IMG/VR virus record: IMGVR_UViG_3300031993_000008
Span: 1 to 64,000 of that record
Direction: 5' to 3' (one strand)
Source: a virus
Taxonomy: Duplodnaviria > Caudoviricetes
DNA: 64,000 nt
Numbering within the stretch: position 1 is the stretch's first letter; each line of letters opens with the position of its first letter. This document shows positions 289-58,740 of this stretch, in pieces. Both the position numbers and the translations under genes were made by a program. A model generated the notes under the pieces. The model saw only the letters and a list, made by a program, of their open reading frames with translations. It was not told where the DNA came from and made no database searches.

Positions 289-312
289 AAAAAGTGAGGA
301 TTAATCCTCACT
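289..312 (-). terminator. Intrinsic terminator abutting late promoter
   Basis: agtgagga-ttaa-tcctcact hairpin followed by T-tract on minus strand. Confidence 0.7.
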
Positions 313-885
313 CTTCTGTTTCTTATTTTCATTGACAAACTTTGAAAATTTCTTTATTTTTCCTTCCTCATATGGATAATTATCAAATGGGAAATCATCT
401 TCCTCATATGTATGTTTTGGTTCATATCCTTCTACTGTAACCTCCAATAATTCATCTTGAATGAATTTGGCACCATCTTCATCAATAAAACTTTCAGCTG
501 GAATCCTAAATGTTAACTCATCCTCATCAAATTCTGCAATATAATCCTCATCTAAATCAACAAGGATATTTCTGAAATTAGGGTCTATACAGTTTCCATC
601 TTTGTCTACAACCTCTTCAATAACCCTCATAGGAATTATACCTGTTAGTTGTTTCAATTGATCAACAAAATTATCCCATATATGTCTATACCTCTCATCA
701 ATTTCACCATTCCATACTGGATCATTATTTGTGTTGATGGCAAGATGGTATTTTGCTTTTGGTCTTTTATTTGCTTCAAGTAAAAAATCAAAGAACTGCC
801 TCAACAATTCTTTATTTTCATCAGATATTTCAGGAAGTTCAGTTTTCTCATTGACAAACTCCTTGAATGATTTTACAATTCCCAT
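301..885 (-). CDS. Acidic putative internal head protein
   Basis: Starts IVKSFKEFVNE and ends IKKFSKFVNE; CATAAATA at 909-916. Confidence 0.6.
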   Translation of the reverse strand: MGIVKSFKEFVNEKTELPEISDENKELLRQFFDFLLEANKRPKAKYHLAINTNNDPVWNGEIDERYRHIWDNFVDQLKQLTGIIPMRVIEEVVDKDGNCIDPNFRNILVDLDEDYIAEFDEDELTFRIPAESFIDEDGAKFIQDELLEVTVEGYEPKHTYEEDDFPFDNYPYEEGKIKKFSKFVNENKKQKSED

Positions 886-38379: not shown

Positions 38380-40389
38380 TTAATATCTTCTCATCCTTCT
38401 CTGGATTACTTCAGACATTGCCTTGAGTCTTTCTTCAGAAACTACGTTTTCATTAACAGGTGTAGGTTGTGCTACTACTGCCTCATCAACTTTCTGAAGT
38501 TCAATCTGCTTGTCTCTGAAATCTCTGGTATTCCAGAAATAAACTGCACTTGCTTCATTGTTGATTACAAACATCTTTGACTCTGCAAGAATCTCCTGTT
38601 TTCTCTCATCTGAAAGTTTTGACCATCTCTCATTGAGTCTTTCAGGAAGATAGTTGATAAGTGTGAAGTTTGCTGCTTCAACATTCTTCTTTGACTCTTC
38701 AAGTGCCTTTGCCTCTGCAGCCTTTTCCTCTGCATATGCAGCCCTTGCTGTTGCAAGGATAGCATCAAGTTTCTCTGAAAGTTCTGTCTGATACTTCTTT
38801 GCATCAAACTTCTCTTCCTCAACTGTAGCAACTGGTTCAGCGGGAGTCTCTTCTGTTGTGTTGTTCTCATTGACTGGAGTTTCAACAGTTGCAGGTTCCT
38901 CAGCAGGAGTCTCTTCAGTTGTTGTATTATTCTCATTAACAGGAGTCTCAACTGTAGCAGGTTCTGTTGCTGGTTCAGCAGGAGTCTCGACAGGAGTCTC
39001 ATCCTTCTTTTCCTCAACAAGATTCAAACCACCCTTATTGAGTTCCTCAACAATGTAATCCTGATGTTCGATAATCTGGTTCATCTTCTCTGCAAGATAA
39101 TCATTATGGGCAATTGACTTATTCTGTTCCTCAGCAAGCATATTTGAATAATCAATAGACTTGTCAAGCATTTCAGCAACATAGTTCTGATATGAGATTG
39201 TGTCATTGATATTCTCTGCAAGATAATCCTGATGAGCAACCATCTGGTTCATCTTCTCTGCAAGATAATCATTGTAACCAACAATCTTGTTCATGCTCTC
39301 TGCAAGGTAGTTGTTATGTTCAATAACCTTGTTTGTCTCATCAGCGATATAATCCTGATGAATGATAGACTTATCAAGAGTCTCTGCAAGATATTTGGTA
39401 TAACTCTTAAGGTTGTTGAATGATTCTTCAGTTGCGGCAACCTTTGCCTCAAGTTCAGCCACTTTCTGATTACCTCCAACCTGTGCAGCACCATCACCAG
39501 TAATTCTGGCAACTTCCTTGGCAACAAGGTCAGCAATCTGTGAGTTATCAATTTTTGCAGGATCAAAAGTCTGGGTTGGAGTCTCACCACCCTTCTCCTT
39601 ATAACTGATCAACTCATCCTTGATATTTGAAATGGCAGACTGAAGTTCACCTACAATCTCTGACAGGTGTTCACTGTATTTCTGGAAATCAGAATACTGT
39701 ATGAATTTGTTGTCTTCCATATTTGTGTCTTTTAATGTATCCTCATTCCTTTGAGCCTGTGGTGCTGCTTGGTCAACAGTCTTGGTTACCTGGGGATCAA
39801 GGTTGGTGTTTGCATCTTCAGAGATGTCATAGATGTCAATTGAGTCATCATCACCAAATCCATAAGACTCATTAACCCTCTTGAGTTGGGCATTGGCAAA
39901 GCCAGGATCTGCAACAAGGTCATAAGTAAAAAGTTGCTGAAGCTTTACATGTCCAGATTCATCAACTGTTCCGGCAGCCCTTGATGAGATATTCAAAGGA
40001 ATACCATCCTTTACAAGTGCCTGTGCTTCCTTACCAGCAGTGGTGTTAAGGAGTCTAATCTTACCCACAATTGCATTTTGCTGTGGGTCAAATTCAAGAC
40101 TTTCAACAACATGAGAAACATTTCCAAGTGAAATCTCAAATCCATGTGGATGATCCAACTCACCAAGAAGTCTCTTACTTTCAATCTGTTCCCTCAATGC
40201 TTCTACATGTGGAAGGAAGTCAGCAGACTCATAGATTCTGCCGTTACGGTTTTTGGTATTGAAAGATGTGAAAAGTCCAGTTAATACAATAGAATCGCTG
40301 TGTTCATTATTTTCATTCAGTACCTGCTCAACTGAATAATTGAGTGTGGCATTAGAGCGTTCTACTATCAATAGTTTCTTCTCTTTCAT
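38380..40389 (-). CDS. gp21: Prohead protease (gp21-like) fused to scaffold/core region
   Basis: NRNGRIY, LGELDHP, ISSRAAG, TYDLVADPGF; long coiled-coil C-terminus; CATAAATA at 40423-40430. Confidence 0.9.
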   Translation of the reverse strand: MKEKKLLIVERSNATLNYSVEQVLNENNEHSDSIVLTGLFTSFNTKNRNGRIYESADFLPHVEALREQIESKRLLGELDHPHGFEISLGNVSHVVESLEFDPQQNAIVGKIRLLNTTAGKEAQALVKDGIPLNISSRAAGTVDESGHVKLQQLFTYDLVADPGFANAQLKRVNESYGFGDDDSIDIYDISEDANTNLDPQVTKTVDQAAPQAQRNEDTLKDTNMEDNKFIQYSDFQKYSEHLSEIVGELQSAISNIKDELISYKEKGGETPTQTFDPAKIDNSQIADLVAKEVARITGDGAAQVGGNQKVAELEAKVAATEESFNNLKSYTKYLAETLDKSIIHQDYIADETNKVIEHNNYLAESMNKIVGYNDYLAEKMNQMVAHQDYLAENINDTISYQNYVAEMLDKSIDYSNMLAEEQNKSIAHNDYLAEKMNQIIEHQDYIVEELNKGGLNLVEEKKDETPVETPAEPATEPATVETPVNENNTTTEETPAEEPATVETPVNENNTTEETPAEPVATVEEEKFDAKKYQTELSEKLDAILATARAAYAEEKAAEAKALEESKKNVEAANFTLINYLPERLNERWSKLSDERKQEILAESKMFVINNEASAVYFWNTRDFRDKQIELQKVDEAVVAQPTPVNENVVSEERLKAMSEVIQRRMRRY

Positions 40390-44938: not shown

Positions 44939-45232
44939 TTAGTTCTTATATCCTATATATGCTGCCACAGCAGTTGTGAACAACCTACTGTTGAACAAGT
45001 CATAGAGAAGACCACTGGTAATACCCAATGCCTTACATATTGCCCTTCCAATTATGGGACCAACTGCTGCACCGGTGATACCACCTACAACAGATCCGAG
45101 GATTCCTTCATCAACCTCCTCACCATTCTTTATCTTTTCAGCAATTGTTTCAACCGCCTCATTTATCATCTGTTCCTCTGATTCATTCAACTGGACATCT
45201 CCATTGAAATAATCTTCATATTTCTTAATCAT
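44939..45232 (-). CDS. Late protein: acidic pro-region plus glycine-zipper hydrophobic domain
   Basis: IKKYEDYF..LNES..INEA..VDE/GILGSVVGGITGAAVG; CATAAATA at 45258-45265. Confidence 0.65.
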   Translation of the reverse strand: MIKKYEDYFNGDVQLNESEEQMINEAVETIAEKIKNGEEVDEGILGSVVGGITGAAVGPIIGRAICKALGITSGLLYDLFNSRLFTTAVAAYIGYKN

Positions 45233-49735: not shown

Positions 49736-51502
49736 TTATCTTATACTTTCCGCTTTTGTCGTGATTATGTGTTCCAATCCTACTATTTCTCTCAAATAAG
49801 CAATCTCTCCGGCAAACATACCTTCACCATTACCCATATAGTATGTCAATACACATATATCATTAAGTACCTTTGCACCACAAACCTCCTTCAAGTAAAT
49901 AGGTTTATGAGGGTTACCATAACAACTCCATATGGCATCACCGAATATAAGGAATACGGAATCCTTATCCTTTCTCCTGATTTCATTGATTGTATGGGCA
50001 ACATCTTCAAAGTTCTCGGAACCACCACCAGGATTCTGACTATTGATATAATCCCAGGTCTGTGAAAGAACAACATCCTTACCCTTTGCCCTGAGCATCT
50101 TTCCGTTTATCTTTCTTGGGAGGACAATCTGGTCACCAAAACCATATACAATTACATCTGTATAAGAGAGTTCCTGACACAAGTCAATGACCTTTCCAAG
50201 GAAGGTATAAACCAAATCCTGATTTACAGAACCAGAGAAGTCAATAAAGCAATATATCTTCTGGATTACACCATGACCATATGTCCTGGTAGGAAGTACT
50301 GCATCTCTCCATAAGTGGTTCTTATGACCATATACAGTCTTATTCTTTGCCTTTGTGGTATCTCCCTTCATCACTGATTTACCTTTAAGGAAGATCTTCA
50401 ACATTTCCTTCCATTCCTCATTGTCTATCTTTGCTCTCATTGCATTTTTCACAACAGTCCTGGACAATGCTGAACCACCTCTCTTTTCACATTTCTTTTC
50501 AAGACCATCAACAACATCTTTCTTCAACTTCTCCATTTCCTCTTCAGATATGTCTTCTGATGTATTCTTGTTTTTGGTGTCTGTCATTTCATCAATATCC
50601 TCATCAGATATACCTGCCCTCTCCATATCACTTCTGAATTCTTCATCAGATACACTGTCTCTATGTTCACCGGCAAGTTTTCCTGAACCATCATCACCAT
50701 CCTTGAGTTTGTCCATAGCACTGTCAAAACCACCCTCATCACCATTCTCAAGTGCATCTTTCAGTTCAGACAATTTCTTATCTTTTGCTGATGTGTATTT
50801 TCCAGACTTTGAACCTGAACTACTTGATGAACCACTTGATTCATCTGATGATGAACTACCAGATTCTGAACCAGATTCACCACCTGATTCTCCTTCTGAC
50901 TGACTACCGCTTGACTTACTTCCAGAATCACCTCCAGTTTCCTTATCTTGTTTCAGTTTATCAATGGCATTGTCAATGGCATCCTTAAGTCTGTCCTTCT
51001 CTGATTTGTCAGAATCATCACCACTTCCACTTCCACCGGATGGATCCATATCTGATGTATCCAAATCTGATGTATCACCGCTGTCACCAAACTCATTATC
51101 CTTATAATCAAAGTCATCAAAACCATCAGAATCACCTGCCAGATCAAGTTCAATCTCTTTCTTAAGTTTCTCCAGGTCATTCTCATCCCAAAGAACCTTA
51201 TTCTTCTTAAATTCCTTATCCTGGGGTTTTCCTGACATCTTACCTTTAAGAATAGGGTCAATGAAATCATCTGGAATATCCATCTCATCAGTTGATGTCT
51301 GCTCATCATCCCCACCTTCTGACCTCAACTTATAGAAATACTTGGCAAACTTTTCCCATGCCTTTGCAAGACCCTGTTCTGTAGTCTCCATTTCTGGATT
51401 GATAGGTATAGACTTGACAACCTTTTCTGCCTTTTCTTCAACAGATTCCTCTGATTCATTGATATTCAATATGGCATCCAATTGTTCTAATATGCTTATC
51501 AT
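49736..51502 (-). CDS. vWA-domain protein (DUF2201 C-terminal-like) with acidic Ser/Gly linker
   Basis: MIDAS FIDFSGS, GGG, FGD; W...LK.F; N-term NINESEE. Confidence 0.8.
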   Translation of the reverse strand: MISILEQLDAILNINESEESVEEKAEKVVKSIPINPEMETTEQGLAKAWEKFAKYFYKLRSEGGDDEQTSTDEMDIPDDFIDPILKGKMSGKPQDKEFKKNKVLWDENDLEKLKKEIELDLAGDSDGFDDFDYKDNEFGDSGDTSDLDTSDMDPSGGSGSGDDSDKSEKDRLKDAIDNAIDKLKQDKETGGDSGSKSSGSQSEGESGGESGSESGSSSSDESSGSSSSSGSKSGKYTSAKDKKLSELKDALENGDEGGFDSAMDKLKDGDDGSGKLAGEHRDSVSDEEFRSDMERAGISDEDIDEMTDTKNKNTSEDISEEEMEKLKKDVVDGLEKKCEKRGGSALSRTVVKNAMRAKIDNEEWKEMLKIFLKGKSVMKGDTTKAKNKTVYGHKNHLWRDAVLPTRTYGHGVIQKIYCFIDFSGSVNQDLVYTFLGKVIDLCQELSYTDVIVYGFGDQIVLPRKINGKMLRAKGKDVVLSQTWDYINSQNPGGGSENFEDVAHTINEIRRKDKDSVFLIFGDAIWSCYGNPHKPIYLKEVCGAKVLNDICVLTYYMGNGEGMFAGEIAYLREIVGLEHIITTKAESIR

Positions 51503-51521
51503 AATATATGTTCAGTTTATT

Positions 51522-53807
51522 TTATTCTTCATCCATTCCTGATTCCCAATCACCCAATTCATAATCCGGATGTTTTTCAAGTTTTTCAATCAATTCATCA
51601 AGATCCACAAAGTCAAATGTATCCACATAACAGACTTCAAAAACAGATTCCATAAGTTCTGATACACGGTATTCTGGGAAATCCTTCTCAAACTTCAAAG
51701 CAAATCTCTCATAATTACTGTCTTCCAGTCCATCTGAAATATCTGAAAGTTCAAGTATTGTTTCAGAATTCTCATCAATCCAGGCACTGTAATAAAGTTT
51801 TCCTTCATATGGTTTAGGATCAATACCTTCATCTTCATATTCACTGTCTGCACCAGTAAAATCATCTGTAAATCTTGTGGGTTTACTCTTAAGAATATCA
51901 TCAAGGTCTTCTGGACTAAGTGGTTTAACATCATCAGAATCTTCACTCATACCTCCCATTATCTTGAAGTATATCTTTCTGCTTTCCTCATCAAGATACA
52001 TTGGGTTGATGGTGCCCTTATCTATCAGGTACTTCATCACTTCTTCCTTACCCTCTTTCTTGAGCATCTCTGTGAGTTTCTTCATTTCATCAATATAAGC
52101 AGTCTTGAAGTCTTCTCCAGTCCTCCATACCTTCTGGGTCTTGAGAATCTTACCTATAACTCTCATCTTCTCGGCTGCCATTCTTATTACAGAACCTTTC
52201 TCATCTTCATTGAGTTCAGTATTAAGAATATTATTAAATGCATTAAACACTGTTTCAAATACAGTATCAAGAAGATTCTGCATATCTTCCTCTGTTTTGT
52301 TGAGAATTGTCTCATTGTCTATCAACTTAATCAGGTCAGGAAGGAAAGACTCCTTCAGATCATTCAACATTTTAATGAGAGAATCAACATCATCTTTACT
52401 CATTTCAGAGAAATGGAGTTCTGTCAATGATTCAAACTTGTCAATACCACTCTGTAATATTTCAACAGTCTTTCCGGATACAAGTTCAAACTGTTGGAGA
52501 TCAATGAAATTGTTAAACAAAATAATCCACTTCCTGAAAGGATGTTGTCTCTTGAATTTCTCTTTCCTTTCTTCAGCCTTCTTTGCATCCCTTTCCTCTC
52601 TCTTCTTTTTCAGTTTCTCCTTTTCAATATCATCTGAAATGATGTCTTCCAAATCATCCTTTGCTTTATCAATCAAGTCCTGTTTCTCCTCCCTTGAAAG
52701 ACCACCTTCCTTCATTTTCTCCATTGCTTCCTTCAATGATTCCCTGGCCTTTTCAGCATCACTCATAACATCATCACTTGATTTTCCAAACTGATCAGCA
52801 ACCTCATCAGCATTTTCATTAATATCATCCATCAACTTGTCAATGTCTTTCAAAGTCTTATCCATTTCTTCTTCAGACATTCCTTTTGGACTCTTATACA
52901 AATCCTCAACAAGATCTTCAATGTCCATCTTCAATCCACCTATATCACCAAGTTTTGAATCACCAAGTTCCTCAAGTTCATCCTGGATGGTCTTGTCACC
53001 ACGAGACTCCTTACCAAGAATGTCATCAAGTGTCTTCTGGAGTTCCTTTCTTGCATATCTCTTTTCCTCATCCTCTGCATCCGGATTCATCAGAACCTTT
53101 GATGCCTTTTCAATTGCATCAAGAATTTTAAGTTCAATGTCATCAAGTGAGAAACCATTTCTGTCAAGCCACTCCTTATATTCCTTATCACCATACTTAT
53201 CCATGATTTCCTCCCAGGTCATACCTGCATATTCCTTATTATAAAGCATATTCATCTTCTTGAAGAAACTGTCATCAACAATACCATCCTCAACCATTGA
53301 TGAATTAACCTCATAGTCCATACAGATGTTGGCCTTCATGTTGGCCTTCTTTCTTGCACCCTTCAAACCGTCAGCAAACATCTCTTCAGGATACATATCA
53401 TTGAATCTCATAAGATGATCAAAGAAGACATGGAACATTTCATGGAACAGGACACCGAATACCCTATCACTGTTCATCTTACAAGTATTATAGACATAAC
53501 CCATATTTATCCAGAGATTGTTGAAATTATCAACCATCATTGTATCACAGAACTCACTTGGATAAACAGGAATATACATAGGTTTACACTTTGACATAAA
53601 ATTATAGAGATATGGATAATCTCTCATCATTTTATATATGGCATCTGAACAAACCTTAAGAATATCATCAGCTTTAACCTTCACATATCCTTTTTTGGTT
53701 ATGTCATATATGTCTATTTCTCCCATCTTTTCAATGATGTCTTCATTACCAGTTATGACATCATAATAAGATGATTCATTTAAACTTCTATACATCTGAT
53801 TATACAT
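51522..53807 (-). CDS. HExxH metallopeptidase (DUF2201 N-terminal-like) with long helical extension
   Basis: TMMVD, GVLFHEMFHVFFDH, ANICMDYEVN; N-term SLNESS; CATAAATA at 53833-53840. Confidence 0.8.
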   Translation of the reverse strand: MYNQMYRSLNESSYYDVITGNEDIIEKMGEIDIYDITKKGYVKVKADDILKVCSDAIYKMMRDYPYLYNFMSKCKPMYIPVYPSEFCDTMMVDNFNNLWINMGYVYNTCKMNSDRVFGVLFHEMFHVFFDHLMRFNDMYPEEMFADGLKGARKKANMKANICMDYEVNSSMVEDGIVDDSFFKKMNMLYNKEYAGMTWEEIMDKYGDKEYKEWLDRNGFSLDDIELKILDAIEKASKVLMNPDAEDEEKRYARKELQKTLDDILGKESRGDKTIQDELEELGDSKLGDIGGLKMDIEDLVEDLYKSPKGMSEEEMDKTLKDIDKLMDDINENADEVADQFGKSSDDVMSDAEKARESLKEAMEKMKEGGLSREEKQDLIDKAKDDLEDIISDDIEKEKLKKKREERDAKKAEERKEKFKRQHPFRKWIILFNNFIDLQQFELVSGKTVEILQSGIDKFESLTELHFSEMSKDDVDSLIKMLNDLKESFLPDLIKLIDNETILNKTEEDMQNLLDTVFETVFNAFNNILNTELNEDEKGSVIRMAAEKMRVIGKILKTQKVWRTGEDFKTAYIDEMKKLTEMLKKEGKEEVMKYLIDKGTINPMYLDEESRKIYFKIMGGMSEDSDDVKPLSPEDLDDILKSKPTRFTDDFTGADSEYEDEGIDPKPYEGKLYYSAWIDENSETILELSDISDGLEDSNYERFALKFEKDFPEYRVSELMESVFEVCYVDTFDFVDLDELIEKLEKHPDYELGDWESGMDEE

Positions 53808-53893
53808 AAAATTGTGGATAAATAATATATTGTATTTATGAAATAAAAAAGGAAGTGGGTGTCCACTTCCTTTCATTCATATGCCTATTTTTA

Positions 53894-56701
53894 TTAAGCA
53901 AAATCACTCTTGTCATACTTGTATCTTTCAGCAGTTGCATCAAGATATTCCTTCAATTCCTTCAATGTCTCCTTATTCTTCATAACATCAAGGAACTTGA
54001 TGATATTGATGTGCATAATCTTTACAAAGTTGTCCTTTGAACCAGAGAAGGTCTTATTAAGATTGTTGAATACATTCATAAGAATATCAACACTTGGGAC
54101 ATTGTCAGGTGAATAAACAACCTTTATGTAATTCTCAATTCTCTTACATACTTCTGCACATTTTGCAGTTGAAGGAATCTCATAATCAGGATCCTCCAAA
54201 ATCTTCTGTACATTGATAGATGTCTTTGCGTGTTCTGTGAGGAATCTTACATATTTCTTTGCCATCTCAGCACCGATAATTGAAGAAGCCTTCAAAAGTA
54301 TTTCATCTGCCGGAATTTCTGAAATCTCTGCATATCCATGATTCTTCTTGTAAAGATGTAACTCATTCATAAGAGCTGACCAGGTACGAGGTGTTGGCCA
54401 ACCTGATTTACCCTTTTCATACTCTTCAGGTCTGATAGTATGCCAGTTGGTATATTCACCTTCCTCATTCTTTTCAAACATAAGGAACTCAAGAGTTACA
54501 TCATCAAAATGGCCCTTTGTTACAGCCCACTTTTTCCAGTCATCAAATGATGGGATGAAATTGTACTGACCACCAAGGAAACGTGTACCTACAACAGCAC
54601 CTGTTGAACCATAACCCCTCTCAACTTCAGCGTCATCAGCTGGACGGTTAGAACAGCAGATGATTGCCCATTTGTCACCAAGCAGGAACTCATCATTGTA
54701 TGTTCTTGTAAGAAGAAGCTGCATCAAAATCTTGAATATCATCTCATCAGCACGGAAGAACTCATCAAAGAGAAGGATACCTCCTTCTGTTGTTTCTGTG
54801 ATAACAAGACGACCTTTCTTCATACTCTTGTCAACATGACCATTGGCAATATTGTTAAGAATGTCATTCTCTTCCTGACTTGCTGATATACGATAACAAG
54901 GCAACCAGGTCTTTGGAGCTTCTGTTGAAACCTTGTGCATATTACCCTTAATCTTCTCAATGGTGTCTGTTGAAACACCTGATGTCTGGATGAGTTCCTT
55001 TACCTTTGGTCTTTCATTAAGGTAATCATCAACTTTCTTATCCATAGGAATAGGAAGTGTAAAACCATCAACTGTAAGGTCACCACACTCAACAACCATC
55101 AATGCTTTCTGATGGAATGCATCCTGATTTGAGTTCCATTCCTTTATTATACTCTTTGGAATACTTGACTTACCAATACCGGGAGCACCCCAGATAAGAA
55201 CTGAACCACCACCTTCTTCCTCACCTTCCTGATAGGCAGGTACATTCTTGATGGCATCTTCAAGTATCATTCCAAGCTGCTTTGAATTGATGTCTGGAAT
55301 ATCCCTAAGACCACCAGCCTCTGCACTGAAACCTACTCTCTTGAAGTTTTCCTCATTAATCATCTGGAGATAACCAGTATTACCATACTTCTCATAGTGT
55401 TCATTGATCATACCTTTGAAAGTCTCATAGTTCTTGTACTCAATACTGTCCTTGTCAATGATTCCATAATATTCAGGACTCTCAACAATGTCAGCATGTT
55501 TCTCAACACCCTCAAGGAAATCATTATCAACACCACAGAAACCATGAACACCAGGTATTGCATCAGAGGCAATCACATTCAATGATGTATAAGGACTCAT
55601 TACAGGATACATTTCTCCATTTTCTGCAAAGAAGGTGATAAATTTATCAAACTTCAAAGCAATTGATTTAAAAAATCCCCTGATTTTATCAACACCTTTA
55701 TTGATGAAATCCTTTACCTTTCCCTCATTCACAAAGGTATCGAAATCAACTACATGATTCAATTTATTATCCATATCTGTTATATTTTTATTTTCAGTAA
55801 CACCTTCTTCTCCTTCTTCATCAGTCACTGACTTGAAGAAATCTCTTCTATATTTCTTGTTCATTGACTTTGTCTCATCCTCTGTACCACCAATGATAGG
55901 AAGATCAGCCCTTACTGTCTTGGTCTCAAGTGTACCATCAGGATTTCTGAATTTCTTCTCAATCCACTTTGGAGTCCATTTCTTCAATGACTGTGAGAAT
56001 GAACTGAACAGGAACATATTCTTGAAATCAGCACAAGATGAAACATCCCAACTACAAATAGTGTCATTGTTGAATGTTGATTTGTAGAACATACCTTCCA
56101 TAGTCTTTACCCTACCGGTATCCCAACTACTCAAATCAATGTTTGGAAGATCTGTAAAAGCAAACAATGCTGCCATATTGGTGATTGAAGAAACATCCAG
56201 TCTTCTCAAGATACCCTTATGAGTCATCTCATTGGTGTGTTCCTCTTCTACCATATCATAGAAGTCATTGATAAAACCAAAGATGTTGTATTTTGATACC
56301 TTGTTGTCAGTAAGTTTGACAGCACCAGTGATTGTTCTCTTTTCTTCTGGTTCATCAGGATCAGTCTTTTCACCACTACCTTCACCACCTTCATCCTCAA
56401 CATCACCAGTAATAGGTTCATCCTCATCTTTCTTAATGTCATCATCTGACAAAAAGTCATCATCCCAGAATGCCTCATTGAGTCTTGAGAACTTCAATCT
56501 GTTTCTCTCAATTGTCTCATTGATATGTTCAATGTTGTCTTCTACAGATTTATTGATAAGTTCCTCATTTTCAACAAGCCACTTGTCAAACTCATCTGCA
56601 ATCTCATCATCAGACATTGTAATATTACTCTCATTTAGTTTCTTCCTAAACTCAGCTTCCCACCTGATAACAGCAGGACACAGTAATTGTTCTATTGTCA
56701 T
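53894..56701 (-). CDS. MoxR-like AAA+ ATPase with N-terminal DUF285/BspA-like LRR
   Basis: WGAPGIGKS, LLFDEFFRA, CSNR, TRF, WPTPRTW; LDVSSITNM..LF / WDTGRVKTMEGMF / WDVSS repeats. Confidence 0.85.
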   Translation of the reverse strand: MTIEQLLCPAVIRWEAEFRKKLNESNITMSDDEIADEFDKWLVENEELINKSVEDNIEHINETIERNRLKFSRLNEAFWDDDFLSDDDIKKDEDEPITGDVEDEGGEGSGEKTDPDEPEEKRTITGAVKLTDNKVSKYNIFGFINDFYDMVEEEHTNEMTHKGILRRLDVSSITNMAALFAFTDLPNIDLSSWDTGRVKTMEGMFYKSTFNNDTICSWDVSSCADFKNMFLFSSFSQSLKKWTPKWIEKKFRNPDGTLETKTVRADLPIIGGTEDETKSMNKKYRRDFFKSVTDEEGEEGVTENKNITDMDNKLNHVVDFDTFVNEGKVKDFINKGVDKIRGFFKSIALKFDKFITFFAENGEMYPVMSPYTSLNVIASDAIPGVHGFCGVDNDFLEGVEKHADIVESPEYYGIIDKDSIEYKNYETFKGMINEHYEKYGNTGYLQMINEENFKRVGFSAEAGGLRDIPDINSKQLGMILEDAIKNVPAYQEGEEEGGGSVLIWGAPGIGKSSIPKSIIKEWNSNQDAFHQKALMVVECGDLTVDGFTLPIPMDKKVDDYLNERPKVKELIQTSGVSTDTIEKIKGNMHKVSTEAPKTWLPCYRISASQEENDILNNIANGHVDKSMKKGRLVITETTEGGILLFDEFFRADEMIFKILMQLLLTRTYNDEFLLGDKWAIICCSNRPADDAEVERGYGSTGAVVGTRFLGGQYNFIPSFDDWKKWAVTKGHFDDVTLEFLMFEKNEEGEYTNWHTIRPEEYEKGKSGWPTPRTWSALMNELHLYKKNHGYAEISEIPADEILLKASSIIGAEMAKKYVRFLTEHAKTSINVQKILEDPDYEIPSTAKCAEVCKRIENYIKVVYSPDNVPSVDILMNVFNNLNKTFSGSKDNFVKIMHINIIKFLDVMKNKETLKELKEYLDATAERYKYDKSDFA

Positions 56702-56713
56702 AATCTATATAGT

Positions 56714-58696
56714 TTATTTTCTTGATAATTCTCTCTTAAGTTTCTTCTTCCAGAACTCACGACCTTCCTTACCGTTCAATACATCATGGAACATACTCAA
56801 TGTACGCCAGTTGATTGACTGGTAATTTGGATCAGCCAGGAGTTTCTCAACTTCCTCAATGAACTCCTCAACCATATCCCTTGGAATTGCACATCTGTCA
56901 TCAGGAATAGTCTTATCTGCATATTCTGTAAGAATCTTCTTCTTCATAACTGTCCAGATTGATTCAGCAAGAGGTGCAATATCATAGTTCTCAAAACGAG
57001 ATGAGATAGCATCCCAGTTACCCTTACCTACTTCATTGATAAATACATCTCTTTCAGAGTTGGAGATGATAACAACAAGACCTCTGAAGATGAACTCATT
57101 AGGCATTGCAGGTTGGGTATTTGCTTCCTCATCCTTCCATGCATCATCAATTTTTGTCATATAGAGGTCAATCATTTCCTGATCGGCATCTTCCTTACTT
57201 GCAACACCACCAGGTGCAGTACCACTATAGTAAAGACTGTATTTCTTCATCTCCTTCTTATAAAAATCTGTCTTATCATCAGCTGACTTACGACCGATTT
57301 CTGTATAATACATCTTCTGTCTGTCACCCTTAAGTCTTCTTACATTATAAACCTTCAGTTTTGACTCCTTACCAGGATAACCTATCAAACAGTCTTCAAT
57401 ATCTGTCTGGAGAGCATTCTTCCACATAGAAACACGGTAGTCACCATCAAAAAGGTTTGGTGAATCATCAAATACCAGCATCTTACCATTGTATTCATAC
57501 ATAAGCTGATAAACAGAGTCTGCTGTTGAGCAACCTGAACCTGCCCATACATAGTCTCTGTTCAATACCATATTCTTTTCCTTGAGGATCTTCTTGAGGG
57601 TATGTGTCTTACCGATACCACCCTTACCAGTGAGAAGGACACCACGTCTTGACATAATAGACTTGTCATTACTATCAAGGTCACCATTCTGATGTACATA
57701 GTTACACATAGCACTTATAACCAACTCCAACTCTGTGATGGTTGATTCATAGTTCTCTGTGTCCTCTTCAATCCTGGCCTTCAGAAGGTCTTCTCTTGCT
57801 TTCATCTTCTTTTCAAGAGAATCTTCCTCATCAGTAACTTCATATGCAATACCAGCAGATGTGGAAATTGCAGGACCCTCACCCTTATATGACTTTACAA
57901 GATTGTCAAATACACCGGCATCAACTGCCTTCTGTACTGAACCAGCAACTCTACCACCTGTTGCAAGCAACATTACATTGTTGGCACAGTCCATCATATA
58001 TCTTGTCTGACCATCCCTGGTAGCCAATGGACCACCAACAAATATCTTAAGAATTCTTGTTGCCACTGGATCATTATCCTGAATCAATAAGAAATACTGT
58101 TCAACTGCATTCTTTACACCATAATCACGGATAAAACCATATACATACTGTTTGTCATCCTCTGACATCTTCTCGAAGTTCTTTACATTCTTCTCAACAT
58201 AACCGGCACCAATTCTTCCGGCAAATGACTCATCAACTGGTTCAGGATTCTGCAAGTCATAAACCAACTGATCAAGCATATCCTTGAAACCAAGTTTCTT
58301 TGTTGAATAGGTAACCAATGCAACATTTTCCTTACCCATCTCAAATGTGTCAAATATTGAAATGAATTTCTCATTCTGGTCACGGCAGCAGACAATCTGC
58401 TTACCTCCATCCCTGTCAAAGAACCTTACACCAGGGACACCATTCAGATAAACAACATTGTATCCAACAGCAAAATCACCAATATTCTGCAGCCTCTTTG
58501 CTACAATATTGGAGATTTTTGAAAGATATTTATCCTCATAAACAGTTGTACCTATGATAATGTCATTTTCAGATATTCCCAAATCATCAGTATCTGGGAT
58601 TTCCAAAGTCTTATCCTCATTATCAACTGCTTCTTTCAATGCCTTTTTATTTGAAACAAATTCTTCGGCATCAAAATTTTTGAAATGTCTTATCAT
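56714..58696 (-). CDS. AAA-type P-loop ATPase
   Basis: LTGKGGIGKT Walker A, LVFDD Walker B, VIISN, AISSR; CATAAATA at 58728-58735. Confidence 0.8.
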   Translation of the reverse strand: MIRHFKNFDAEEFVSNKKALKEAVDNEDKTLEIPDTDDLGISENDIIIGTTVYEDKYLSKISNIVAKRLQNIGDFAVGYNVVYLNGVPGVRFFDRDGGKQIVCCRDQNEKFISIFDTFEMGKENVALVTYSTKKLGFKDMLDQLVYDLQNPEPVDESFAGRIGAGYVEKNVKNFEKMSEDDKQYVYGFIRDYGVKNAVEQYFLLIQDNDPVATRILKIFVGGPLATRDGQTRYMMDCANNVMLLATGGRVAGSVQKAVDAGVFDNLVKSYKGEGPAISTSAGIAYEVTDEEDSLEKKMKAREDLLKARIEEDTENYESTITELELVISAMCNYVHQNGDLDSNDKSIMSRRGVLLTGKGGIGKTHTLKKILKEKNMVLNRDYVWAGSGCSTADSVYQLMYEYNGKMLVFDDSPNLFDGDYRVSMWKNALQTDIEDCLIGYPGKESKLKVYNVRRLKGDRQKMYYTEIGRKSADDKTDFYKKEMKKYSLYYSGTAPGGVASKEDADQEMIDLYMTKIDDAWKDEEANTQPAMPNEFIFRGLVVIISNSERDVFINEVGKGNWDAISSRFENYDIAPLAESIWTVMKKKILTEYADKTIPDDRCAIPRDMVEEFIEEVEKLLADPNYQSINWRTLSMFHDVLNGKEGREFWKKKLKRELSRK

Positions 58697-58740
58697 ATCT
58701 TATTTCTTATGATTATATAATATAAGTTATTTATGAAATA

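Follow-up and report, generated by a model that had tools for sequence, protein, structure and literature searches.

Head-protease-type leaders on the MoxR, peptidase and vWA module of a large T4-like gut phage suggest candidate head-packaged cargo

Sets of genes for a MoxR ATPase, a vWA protein and a peptidase occur widely among large T4-related phages, but what they do has only been guessed at. Iyer et al. 2021 described a MoxR and metallopeptidase-vWA pair in T4-related (group 2.2) jumbo phages and, in the passages on this pair, proposed a role in virion assembly and peptidolytic processing (PMC7824862). The propeptides of phage T4 are 10-19 residues long, with residues 4 and 7 serving targeting and residues 8 and 10 cutting, which takes place after (L/I)xE (PMC9026906). 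Phage SPN3US packs many protease-processed ejection proteins (PMC10052503), and in Acidianus two-tailed virus (ATV) the MoxR protein p618 is a major virion protein (PMC4124505). Here, we describe a four-gene MoxR, peptidase and vWA module at positions 49736-58696 of a 64,000-nucleotide stretch of phage DNA (the window), which is the first 64 kb of the 248-kb IMG/VR virus record IMGVR_UViG_3300031993_000008 (CheckV completeness 67%). Each of its four proteins begins with a conserved leader ending in a site of the T4 head-protease type, and we put the chances at about even that these proteins are loaded into the phage head and processed there by the head protease.

The source is a large uncultured T4-like gut myovirus with T4-type head genes. 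Profile searches of the same genome detected the capsid protein (Gp23, 121 bits), the portal (Portal_T4, 236 bits) and a head protease of the T4 gp21 family (Peptidase_S77, 34.2 bits against a cut-off of 27; phrog_207 at 1e-39). The protease is the N-terminal domain of a 669-amino acid (aa) prohead protease-scaffold fusion with a repeat-rich, scaffold-like C-terminal part (window 38380-40389, minus strand), and a tail sheath gene is also present in the window. The module consists of consecutive co-directional genes on the minus strand, which lie where a preliminary description of this DNA had placed an AAA ATPase, an LRR plus MoxR protein, an HExxH peptidase and a vWA protein. By their motifs and profile matches we assign them as an AAA+ ATPase (P0001, 660 aa, 56714-58696, matching phrog_1250), a protein with DUF285/PARCEL repeats and a MoxR-like AAA_5 ATPase (P0002, 935 aa, 53894-56701), an HExxH peptidase of the DUF2201_N zincin type (P0003, 761 aa, 51522-53807) and a vWA protein with a MIDAS motif (P0004, 588 aa, 49736-51502).

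The leaders measure 11, 16, 22 and 24 residues, and the sites that end them are strongly conserved (in what follows, an arrow marks the predicted cut). The leader of P0001, MIRHFKNFDAEEFVSNKKALKE↓A (58631-58696, minus strand), has the consensus MIKKFxDFD...xxE↓A/S in 30 homologues, with M1, F5, F8 and E22 kept in at least 90% of them. E156 of the same protein, a candidate second cleavage site (PVDE↓S, 58229-58231, minus strand), is invariant across these homologues at 22-88% identity, and the linker around it varies in length through indels and is modelled with a predicted local distance difference test (pLDDT) value below 50. P0002 carries cut-type sites at E24, E62, E76 and E326 (FVNE↓G, residues 323-327) that are kept in four relatives at 60-85% identity, the last also in the distant loci L009 and L011. 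The three sites within its first 76 residues parallel the propeptide of the capsid protein, whose N-terminus carries ILNE↓A, FITE↓S and SLNE↓S. For P0003, the leader MYNQMYRSLNE↓S is represented by [LM]NE[AS] in 110/120 homologues and the glutamate is kept in 0.99 of them; as an internal control, five chance look-alike motifs in the same protein keep theirs in 0.06-0.61 only. P0004 begins with MISILEQLDAILNINE↓S, where the terminal NINE↓S appears as [VIL]NE[SA] in about 105/113 homologues and the glutamate is kept in 0.99, at a flank identity of 0.57.

The same type of site is defined independently elsewhere in the genome. WGGxLDRG-type tags occur 13 times, 12 of them after a leader or an internal junction, and xxE↓S stands ahead of all 12 of these, as VNE↓S or TNE↓S at the four internal junctions. 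The predicted sites of the module match the junctions ahead of these tags. Genome-wide, [LIVMF]NE[SAGT] occurs 45 times against 21.8 in shuffles, half of the occurrences lying within 75 residues of an N-terminus. Within the first 40 residues, xE[SAG] is found in 37% of the genes driven by the promoter-like octamer CATAAATA (described below) and in 16% of the others (Fisher p = 0.005), and controls in which D, Q or K takes the P1 position have neither N-terminal nor late-gene enrichment. Among the four module proteins, the NE variant is enriched in P0002 alone (3 against 0.3 expected, p = 0.0025).

Some of the leaders also resemble the capsid-targeting sequence of T4, where the internal proteins IPII and IPIII begin MKTYQEFIAE↓A (read from NC_000866). 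The corresponding heptad, [FYW]xx[FYW][LIVM]xE, occurs 31 times in the genome against 16.1 in shuffles (at most 29 in any of 200). Several late proteins carry it N-terminally (KSFKEFVNE, KTFTEFLLE, KSFNEFINE), and the scaffold repeats contain it three times. Within the module, an aromatic pair of the T4 targeting type is present in the internal leader of P0002 (FDTFVNE, at residue 320), and P0001 also has one, set apart from the cut (F5 and F8); the leaders of P0002 and P0004 both begin (I/L/F)-E-(E/Q)-L. The protease-scaffold fusion contains repeated (S/G)Y-x-x-Y-(L/V)-A-E units that share their heptad shape with the cargo leaders and with T4 KTYQEFIAE, which hints that the cargo leaders mimic the scaffold repeats.

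P0002 has the following order: a long propeptide (E24, E62, E76), an acidic linker with DUF285/PARCEL repeats (residues 163-245, 55967-56215, minus strand; PF03382, E 9.7e-15), an internal leader and, as the C-terminal two thirds, the MoxR-like AAA_5 ATPase. The internal leader, MDNKLNHVVDFDTFVNE↓G (residues 310-326, 55724-55774, minus strand), aligns with Met1 and the leader of a stand-alone paralogous MoxR encoded in the same genome and is conserved in the distant L009 and L011. Because of this alignment, P0002 looks like a DUF285 protein fused ahead of a complete unit of leader plus MoxR, that is, a candidate polyprotein. The AAA_5 match reaches 25.4 bits (cut-off 22) and covers profile positions 33-96 only, and P0002 also matches phrog_1297 "ATPase" (1e-28) and, by tblastn, a cyanophage "MoxR-like ATPase" (E 1e-8). 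An NCBIfam scan gave PARCEL repeats beyond weak P-loop matches, and a profile search of PDB gave matches at the Walker A level only. Walker A (GAPGIGKS, 505-512) and Walker B (ILLFDE, 642-647) are invariant in eight sequences, including distant ones, and a vWA/MIDAS partner, P0004, is encoded two genes downstream. As a MoxR-like protein, it would be expected to form a hexameric ring with ATPase activity.

P0003 and P0004 are assigned, by domain and profile evidence, as a DUF2201 protein split over two genes. P0003 carries the zincin motif HEMFH at residues 122-126 and a long, charged, helical and acidic C-terminal extension. Its DUF2201_N match (22.5 bits) is just below the cut-off of 23.2, and among 120 homologues HExxH is present in 119 and PF13203 is precomputed on most. 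P0004 has an acidic Ser/Gly-rich low-complexity middle between its leader and a C-terminal vWA domain with the MIDAS motif DFSGS (421-425). A Pfam scan of P0004 gave no match. Its C-terminal 259 residues model as vWA/MIDAS (pLDDT 73, predicted template modelling score 0.77, Foldseek probability 1.0), the top Foldseek matches all being vWA/MIDAS domains (Rea1/MDN1 MIDAS, complement C2a and TRAP), and D.SGS is found in 120/120 homologues, with DFSGS invariant. The profile phrog_1314 covers P0003 with positions 8-215 and P0004 with positions 161-311, and the genome also encodes a 771-aa paralogue, unsplit, that matches both. The split is fixed: in the 120 closest cluster representatives for either half, no peptidase homologue has a MIDAS and no vWA homologue an HExxH. 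Peptidase and vWA are separate genes here, in the four close relatives and in L011, and are fused in L009 and in the same-genome paralogue. Both products are acidic (P0003 pI 4.5 with 24% D+E, P0004 pI 4.65, proteome median pI 5.3), and the split into two enlarged acidic proteins is as the preliminary description had it. A complex prediction for the P0003 peptidase domain and the P0004 vWA domain scored 0.00, which gives no verdict and is not evidence either way.

Closer inspection of P0001 showed a leader (1-22), an alpha/beta domain (about 50-150), a helical domain (about 168-270) and an AAA+ module (about 350-657) with Walker A GKGGIGKT (357-364) and Walker B MLVFDD (406-411). In the AlphaFold model (pLDDT 80) these appear as a disordered leader, the two domains and an AAA+ module with lid. 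Foldseek matches in PDB are all AAA+ proteins (dynein modules, Msp1, NSF, NorQ) and those in BFVD are small phage AAA+ proteins, including Aeromonas phage 25 "nrdC.10". The architecture is common to 54 representatives at E<1e-30, and Pfam scans of P0001 and of its distant ATPase-domain relatives gave no named family; we take P0001 to belong to a family specific to phages. An Atlas look-up of the N-terminal half of P0001, as well as PDB sequence and profile searches for the capsid protein, P0001, P0002 and P0004, returned nothing usable.

The four-gene order is conserved in four relatives (60-87% identity) and also holds for two distant phages, L011 (split) and L009 (fused), in which the P0001-like protein has 23-25% identity. 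In these two phages, most module proteins have a leader that ends in NE↓S/A (IE↓S in the L011 peptidase), the exception being the L009 DUF285-MoxR protein. A ClpB-like AAA_2 ATPase (653-656 aa) is encoded just upstream of the P0001-like gene in both (L009:2850-4811, L011:5951-7921), and an IS605 OrfB/TnpB gene lies beside the module in L009. The source genome itself has a second, unsplit module (G000 144924-149400, L003:4925-9401, plus strand) beside NrdD. It consists of the 771-aa DUF2201 protein with HExxH and vWA, which scores 26.3 bits on DUF2201_N, followed by the 710-aa paralogous MoxR, which is 30% identical to P0002; CATAAATA lies 25 or 16 nucleotides upstream of each gene. The heptad also occurs inside this DUF2201 protein, as KSYEDYINE↓D between its two halves, and so its domains might be separated by proteolysis instead of by a gene split. 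In cyanophage S-TIM61, the 332-aa MoxR and the 383-aa single-chain DUF2201 are both without leaders. Since these compact versions lack them, we consider the predicted leaders and large acidic extensions to be additions in this giant-phage lineage.

The module forms two apparent transcription units. The first begins with a CATAAATA site at 58735-58728 (minus strand), 31 nucleotides ahead of the P0001 start, covers P0001 and P0002 and ends in a terminator-like hairpin with a 12-bp stem and a T run (53874-53847, minus strand). The second runs from a CATAAATA site at 53840-53833 (minus strand) through P0003 and P0004 to a bidirectional terminator-like hairpin with a 13-bp stem and T runs on both strands (49734-49706), located between the convergent P0004 and PhoH genes. 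For P0003, the start of the longest open reading frame (ORF), 53876, was rejected, as that ORF would cross both the terminator and the promoter; because a CATAAATA site lies inside the longest ORF, after the hairpin, we place the true start at ATG 53807, 25 nucleotides downstream of the site and in agreement with the nearest database homologue. The two sites had been noted before at 58728 and 53833, and the motif proved to be tied to ORF starts. It occurs 18 times in the window against 5.0 expected, and 55 of 62 sites genome-wide lie at same-strand ORF starts (-60 to +75 nucleotides) against 4.8 expected, with a median spacing of 25 nucleotides. The earlier statement that the sites otherwise precede structural genes was right for capsid, protease, portal and sheath, and too narrow: both MoxR modules, an ATP-grasp enzyme and many unknowns are also preceded by CATAAATA. 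As in T4-type late genes, a -10-like octamer common to head and tail genes stands close upstream, and by this analogy we infer that the module is expressed late. It is flanked by the sheath and PhoH genes on one side and by a DNA methyltransferase gene, an AAA clamp-loader-like gene and DnaB on the other.

Taken together, these observations suggest that each module product would be made as a pro-protein with a short leader at its N-terminus that finishes with a conserved (L/I/V)-(N/x)-E ahead of S, A or G, the type of site cut by T4 gp21-family prohead proteases. The leaders would dock the proteins on the scaffolding core of the assembling prohead, as the T4 capsid-targeting sequence does. The Peptidase_S77 protease would then strip the leaders, split P0002 at FVNE↓G into DUF285 and MoxR pieces and probably cut P0001 at PVDE↓S. 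The mature proteins would be retained in the head because they would be too large to leave the shell, and would probably leave it together with the DNA on ejection; once in the new cell, the MoxR ring may act via the vWA adaptor, together with the peptidase, remodelling or cleaving a target. We infer this course throughout, from late timing through docking, cleavage, retention and ejection to the target. Loading and processing, as the preliminary description had proposed, are reasonable given the conserved N-terminal sites, the gp21-family protease, Gp23, the T4-type portal and the T4-like leaders. Delivery into the host, which that description had added, is drawn from analogy with T4 Alt, the internal proteins and the SPN3US ejection proteins, and ejection followed by action in the new host can be put forward only tentatively. 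The fullest version, in which a complete ATP-driven remodelling and proteolysis machine, comprising both AAA+ ATPases, the MIDAS adaptor, the zincin and a DUF285 binding domain, is packed as separately tagged pro-proteins, trimmed, ejected and reassembled as the first active enzyme complex in the new host, is conceivable but on balance doubtful.

Several points weigh against packaging. Over the full length of the proteins, [LIVMFY]xE[SAG] stays at chance levels (P0001 3 against 3.1 expected, P0002 6 against 4.9, P0003 5 against 4.3, P0004 1 against 3.4), and so several of the internal motif examples in the preliminary description carry no weight. Taking every internal xNE or xxE string as a site was rejected on these counts and on the drift of the internal P0003 look-alikes, and the "MINE" examples found no support. 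What is left of the claim that each protein bears head-protease motifs is the set of N-terminal sites, including P0002 E62 and E76, with P0001 PVDE↓S and P0002 FVNE↓G, and the excess over other genes is that of xE[SAG] in the first 40 residues of CATAAATA-driven genes. The T4 aromatic heptad is absent from the leaders of P0003 and P0004 and from the first leader of P0002, so that their docking is deduced from the cut site only, and in the 22-residue leader of P0001 the aromatic pair lies far from the cut. A search of the phage's own record for T4 gp55 found no homologue, which is uninformative at 67% completeness; the late class is thus assigned by the analogy of CATAAATA with the gp55-dependent T4 motif TATAAATA. 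The DNA of the region matched none of 50,697 phage records, and protein searches of phage records with P0001-P0003 gave distant partial matches only (Lak phages, cyanophages, Roseobacter and Ralstonia phages), so there is no close cultured relative with proteomics. The S-TIM61 record labels some neighbouring genes as virion structural and gives neither MoxR nor DUF2201 this label. The MoxR subunits of phage 0305phi8-36 are assigned to its non-structural genes (PMC2147016). We found a MoxR-like ATPase directly detected in the virion of one tailed phage only, the Staphylococcus jumbo phage DC4, where the gene lies beside a metallopeptidase gene; the detection is a single peptide, seen along with GroEL and UvsX, which the authors doubt and for which they ask confirmation (PMC10638138). 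Finally, a hexameric AAA+ machine would have to unfold to traverse the tail and then reassemble.

MoxR proteins are generally maturation chaperones, and the main rival is that the module is a late cytoplasmic chaperone or processing system for virion assembly, which acts in the cytoplasm or on the surface of the prohead, where it folds, assembles or trims structural proteins, and is itself unpackaged. The N-terminal sites would then be regulatory, for example by letting the head protease, or the zincin of the module, switch the proteins on or off. We treat such a role as a live alternative with a modest but real chance of being right. It is the one proposed for MoxR and peptidase-vWA pairs by Iyer et al. 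2021, in the passages concerned (PMC7824862), and agrees with the non-structural grouping of MoxR in 0305phi8-36 (PMC2147016), with the compact cyanophage versions, which lack leaders and are not annotated as virion proteins, and with the place of the module between replication and tail genes. It leaves unexplained, however, why a protease-type site stands on every component and on both halves of P0002 over 22-88% identity, and why sites of the same type also lie ahead of the WGG tags and of the mature end of the capsid protein. T4 gp21 is active only inside assembled proheads, and cutting by a gp21-type protease would therefore mean residence in the prohead, against a cytoplasmic location.

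A second alternative overlaps with the packaging hypothesis up to the retention step. The module would act in the prohead core only, building or clearing a very large scaffold or assisting expansion, and would then be degraded or expelled, with no host delivery. The leaders and scaffold-like heptads fit it equally, the long charged helical extension of P0003 is scaffold-like, and ATV uses its virion MoxR for morphogenesis. However, the mature parts have few or no conserved internal sites (P0004 lies below expectation and the internal sites of P0003 drift), from which proteins of 60-85 kDa would be expected to survive the protease and be too big to leave a closed shell; we consider this alternative unlikely. 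That the motifs are no processing sites at all, but reflect chance with shared ancestry, or N-terminal codon or composition bias, in an ordinary cytoplasmic MoxR-vWA conflict or counter-defence system of the kind that Kaur et al. in 2020 reportedly found common in conflict contexts, is very improbable: the motif is short and its whole-protein counts are at chance, yet the D, Q and K controls at P1 are flat, P0001 E156 is invariant in an indel-bearing linker over 30 divergent homologues, 0.99 of sequences retain the N-terminal sites, in contrast to the drifting internal look-alikes, and a PADLOC scan gave no notable matches.

Other proteins of this phage bear the same leader or heptad, and the candidate cargo may for this reason extend to further enzymes. 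These are a RimK-like ATP-grasp enzyme with PLNE↓S at residues 18-21 and its own CATAAATA site (G000 69508-71295, minus strand; L016), a WYL_2-domain protein with FIINE↓S (G000 131866-132525, minus strand; L018) and a DUF5856 protein with the C-terminal heptad KSFEEFIYE and its own CATAAATA site (G000 100356-101381, plus strand; L022). A small late protein (window 44939-45232, minus strand) starts with MIKKYEDYFNGDVQLNE↓S, like the P0001 leader, and has a second site, MINE↓A, before a glycine-rich hydrophobic segment. A 194-aa late protein (window 301-885, minus strand) has the heptad at both ends, as KSFKEFVNE (residues 5-13) and as KKFSKFVNE near the C-terminus, which recalls T4 Alt, a protein trimmed at both ends.

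If the leaders are indeed head-loading and cutting signals, the module would have its site of action inside the capsid, and probably in the next host, instead of in the cytoplasm of the cell that produces it. Delivery of multi-subunit ATPases would then be within the reach of giant phages, and the principle of T4 Alt and the internal proteins would extend from single proteins to a multi-subunit motor. A simple rule, a leader followed by (L/I/V)NE↓S, would predict the packaged cargo of an uncultured phage clade, here including the ATP-grasp enzyme and the WGG-tagged proteins. The predicted new N-termini make head loading directly testable by mass spectrometry.

Among known systems, Rea1/Midasin, NorQ-NorD and RavA-ViaA likewise have a ring of the AAA_5 type that pulls through a MIDAS/vWA adaptor. 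These serve cellular remodelling and have no peptidase, and the likeness is at the fold level only (10-15% identity). In ATV, p618 (MoxR) and p892 (vWA) are a virus-encoded pair whose MoxR is active in the particle (PMC4124505; Scheele et al. 2011); ATV is an archaeal spindle virus without the peptidase, prohead protease and leaders, and the function of its pair is extracellular tail growth. The ejection proteins of SPN3US and phiKZ-like phages are, like the candidate cargo here, non-shell head proteins with N-terminal propeptides cut at xxE and serine favoured at P1' (PMC10052503), whereas these phages belong to another lineage, their cut motif is AxE, and no set of AAA+, vWA and zincin proteins is reported among their ejection proteins. 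In publications on Jug gut phages, Atu_ph07 and XacN1, we found nothing on such a module.

The likeness to T4 IPI, IPII, IPIII and Alt lies in short N-terminal propeptides ending in (L/I)xE, a gp21-family protease (PMC9026906) and, in some leaders, an aromatic pair three residues apart (KTYQEFIAE in T4; FDTFVNE, KSFKEFVNE and KTFTEFLLE here), and enzymes as cargo, known from T4 Alt, are likewise proposed here. In contrast to T4, the candidate cargo is a multi-subunit ATP-driven machine and not a set of small basic proteins or a single enzyme, the preference at P2 is for asparagine, several leaders have no aromatic pair, and the system is known from its sequence alone. The module itself is already known through the pair described by Iyer et al. 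2021, with which, in the passages on that pair, it shares T4-type head genes and a MoxR-like ATPase beside a zincin peptidase and vWA (PMC7824862). By comparison with that published pair, peptidase and vWA are here separate in a fixed split (120/120 near homologues each) and enlarged (761 and 588 aa against about 380 aa), MoxR is fused behind DUF285 in a candidate polyprotein, a second AAA+ ATPase (P0001) is a conserved member, the genome holds two modules, and protease-type leaders, which those passages do not mention, stand on every part.

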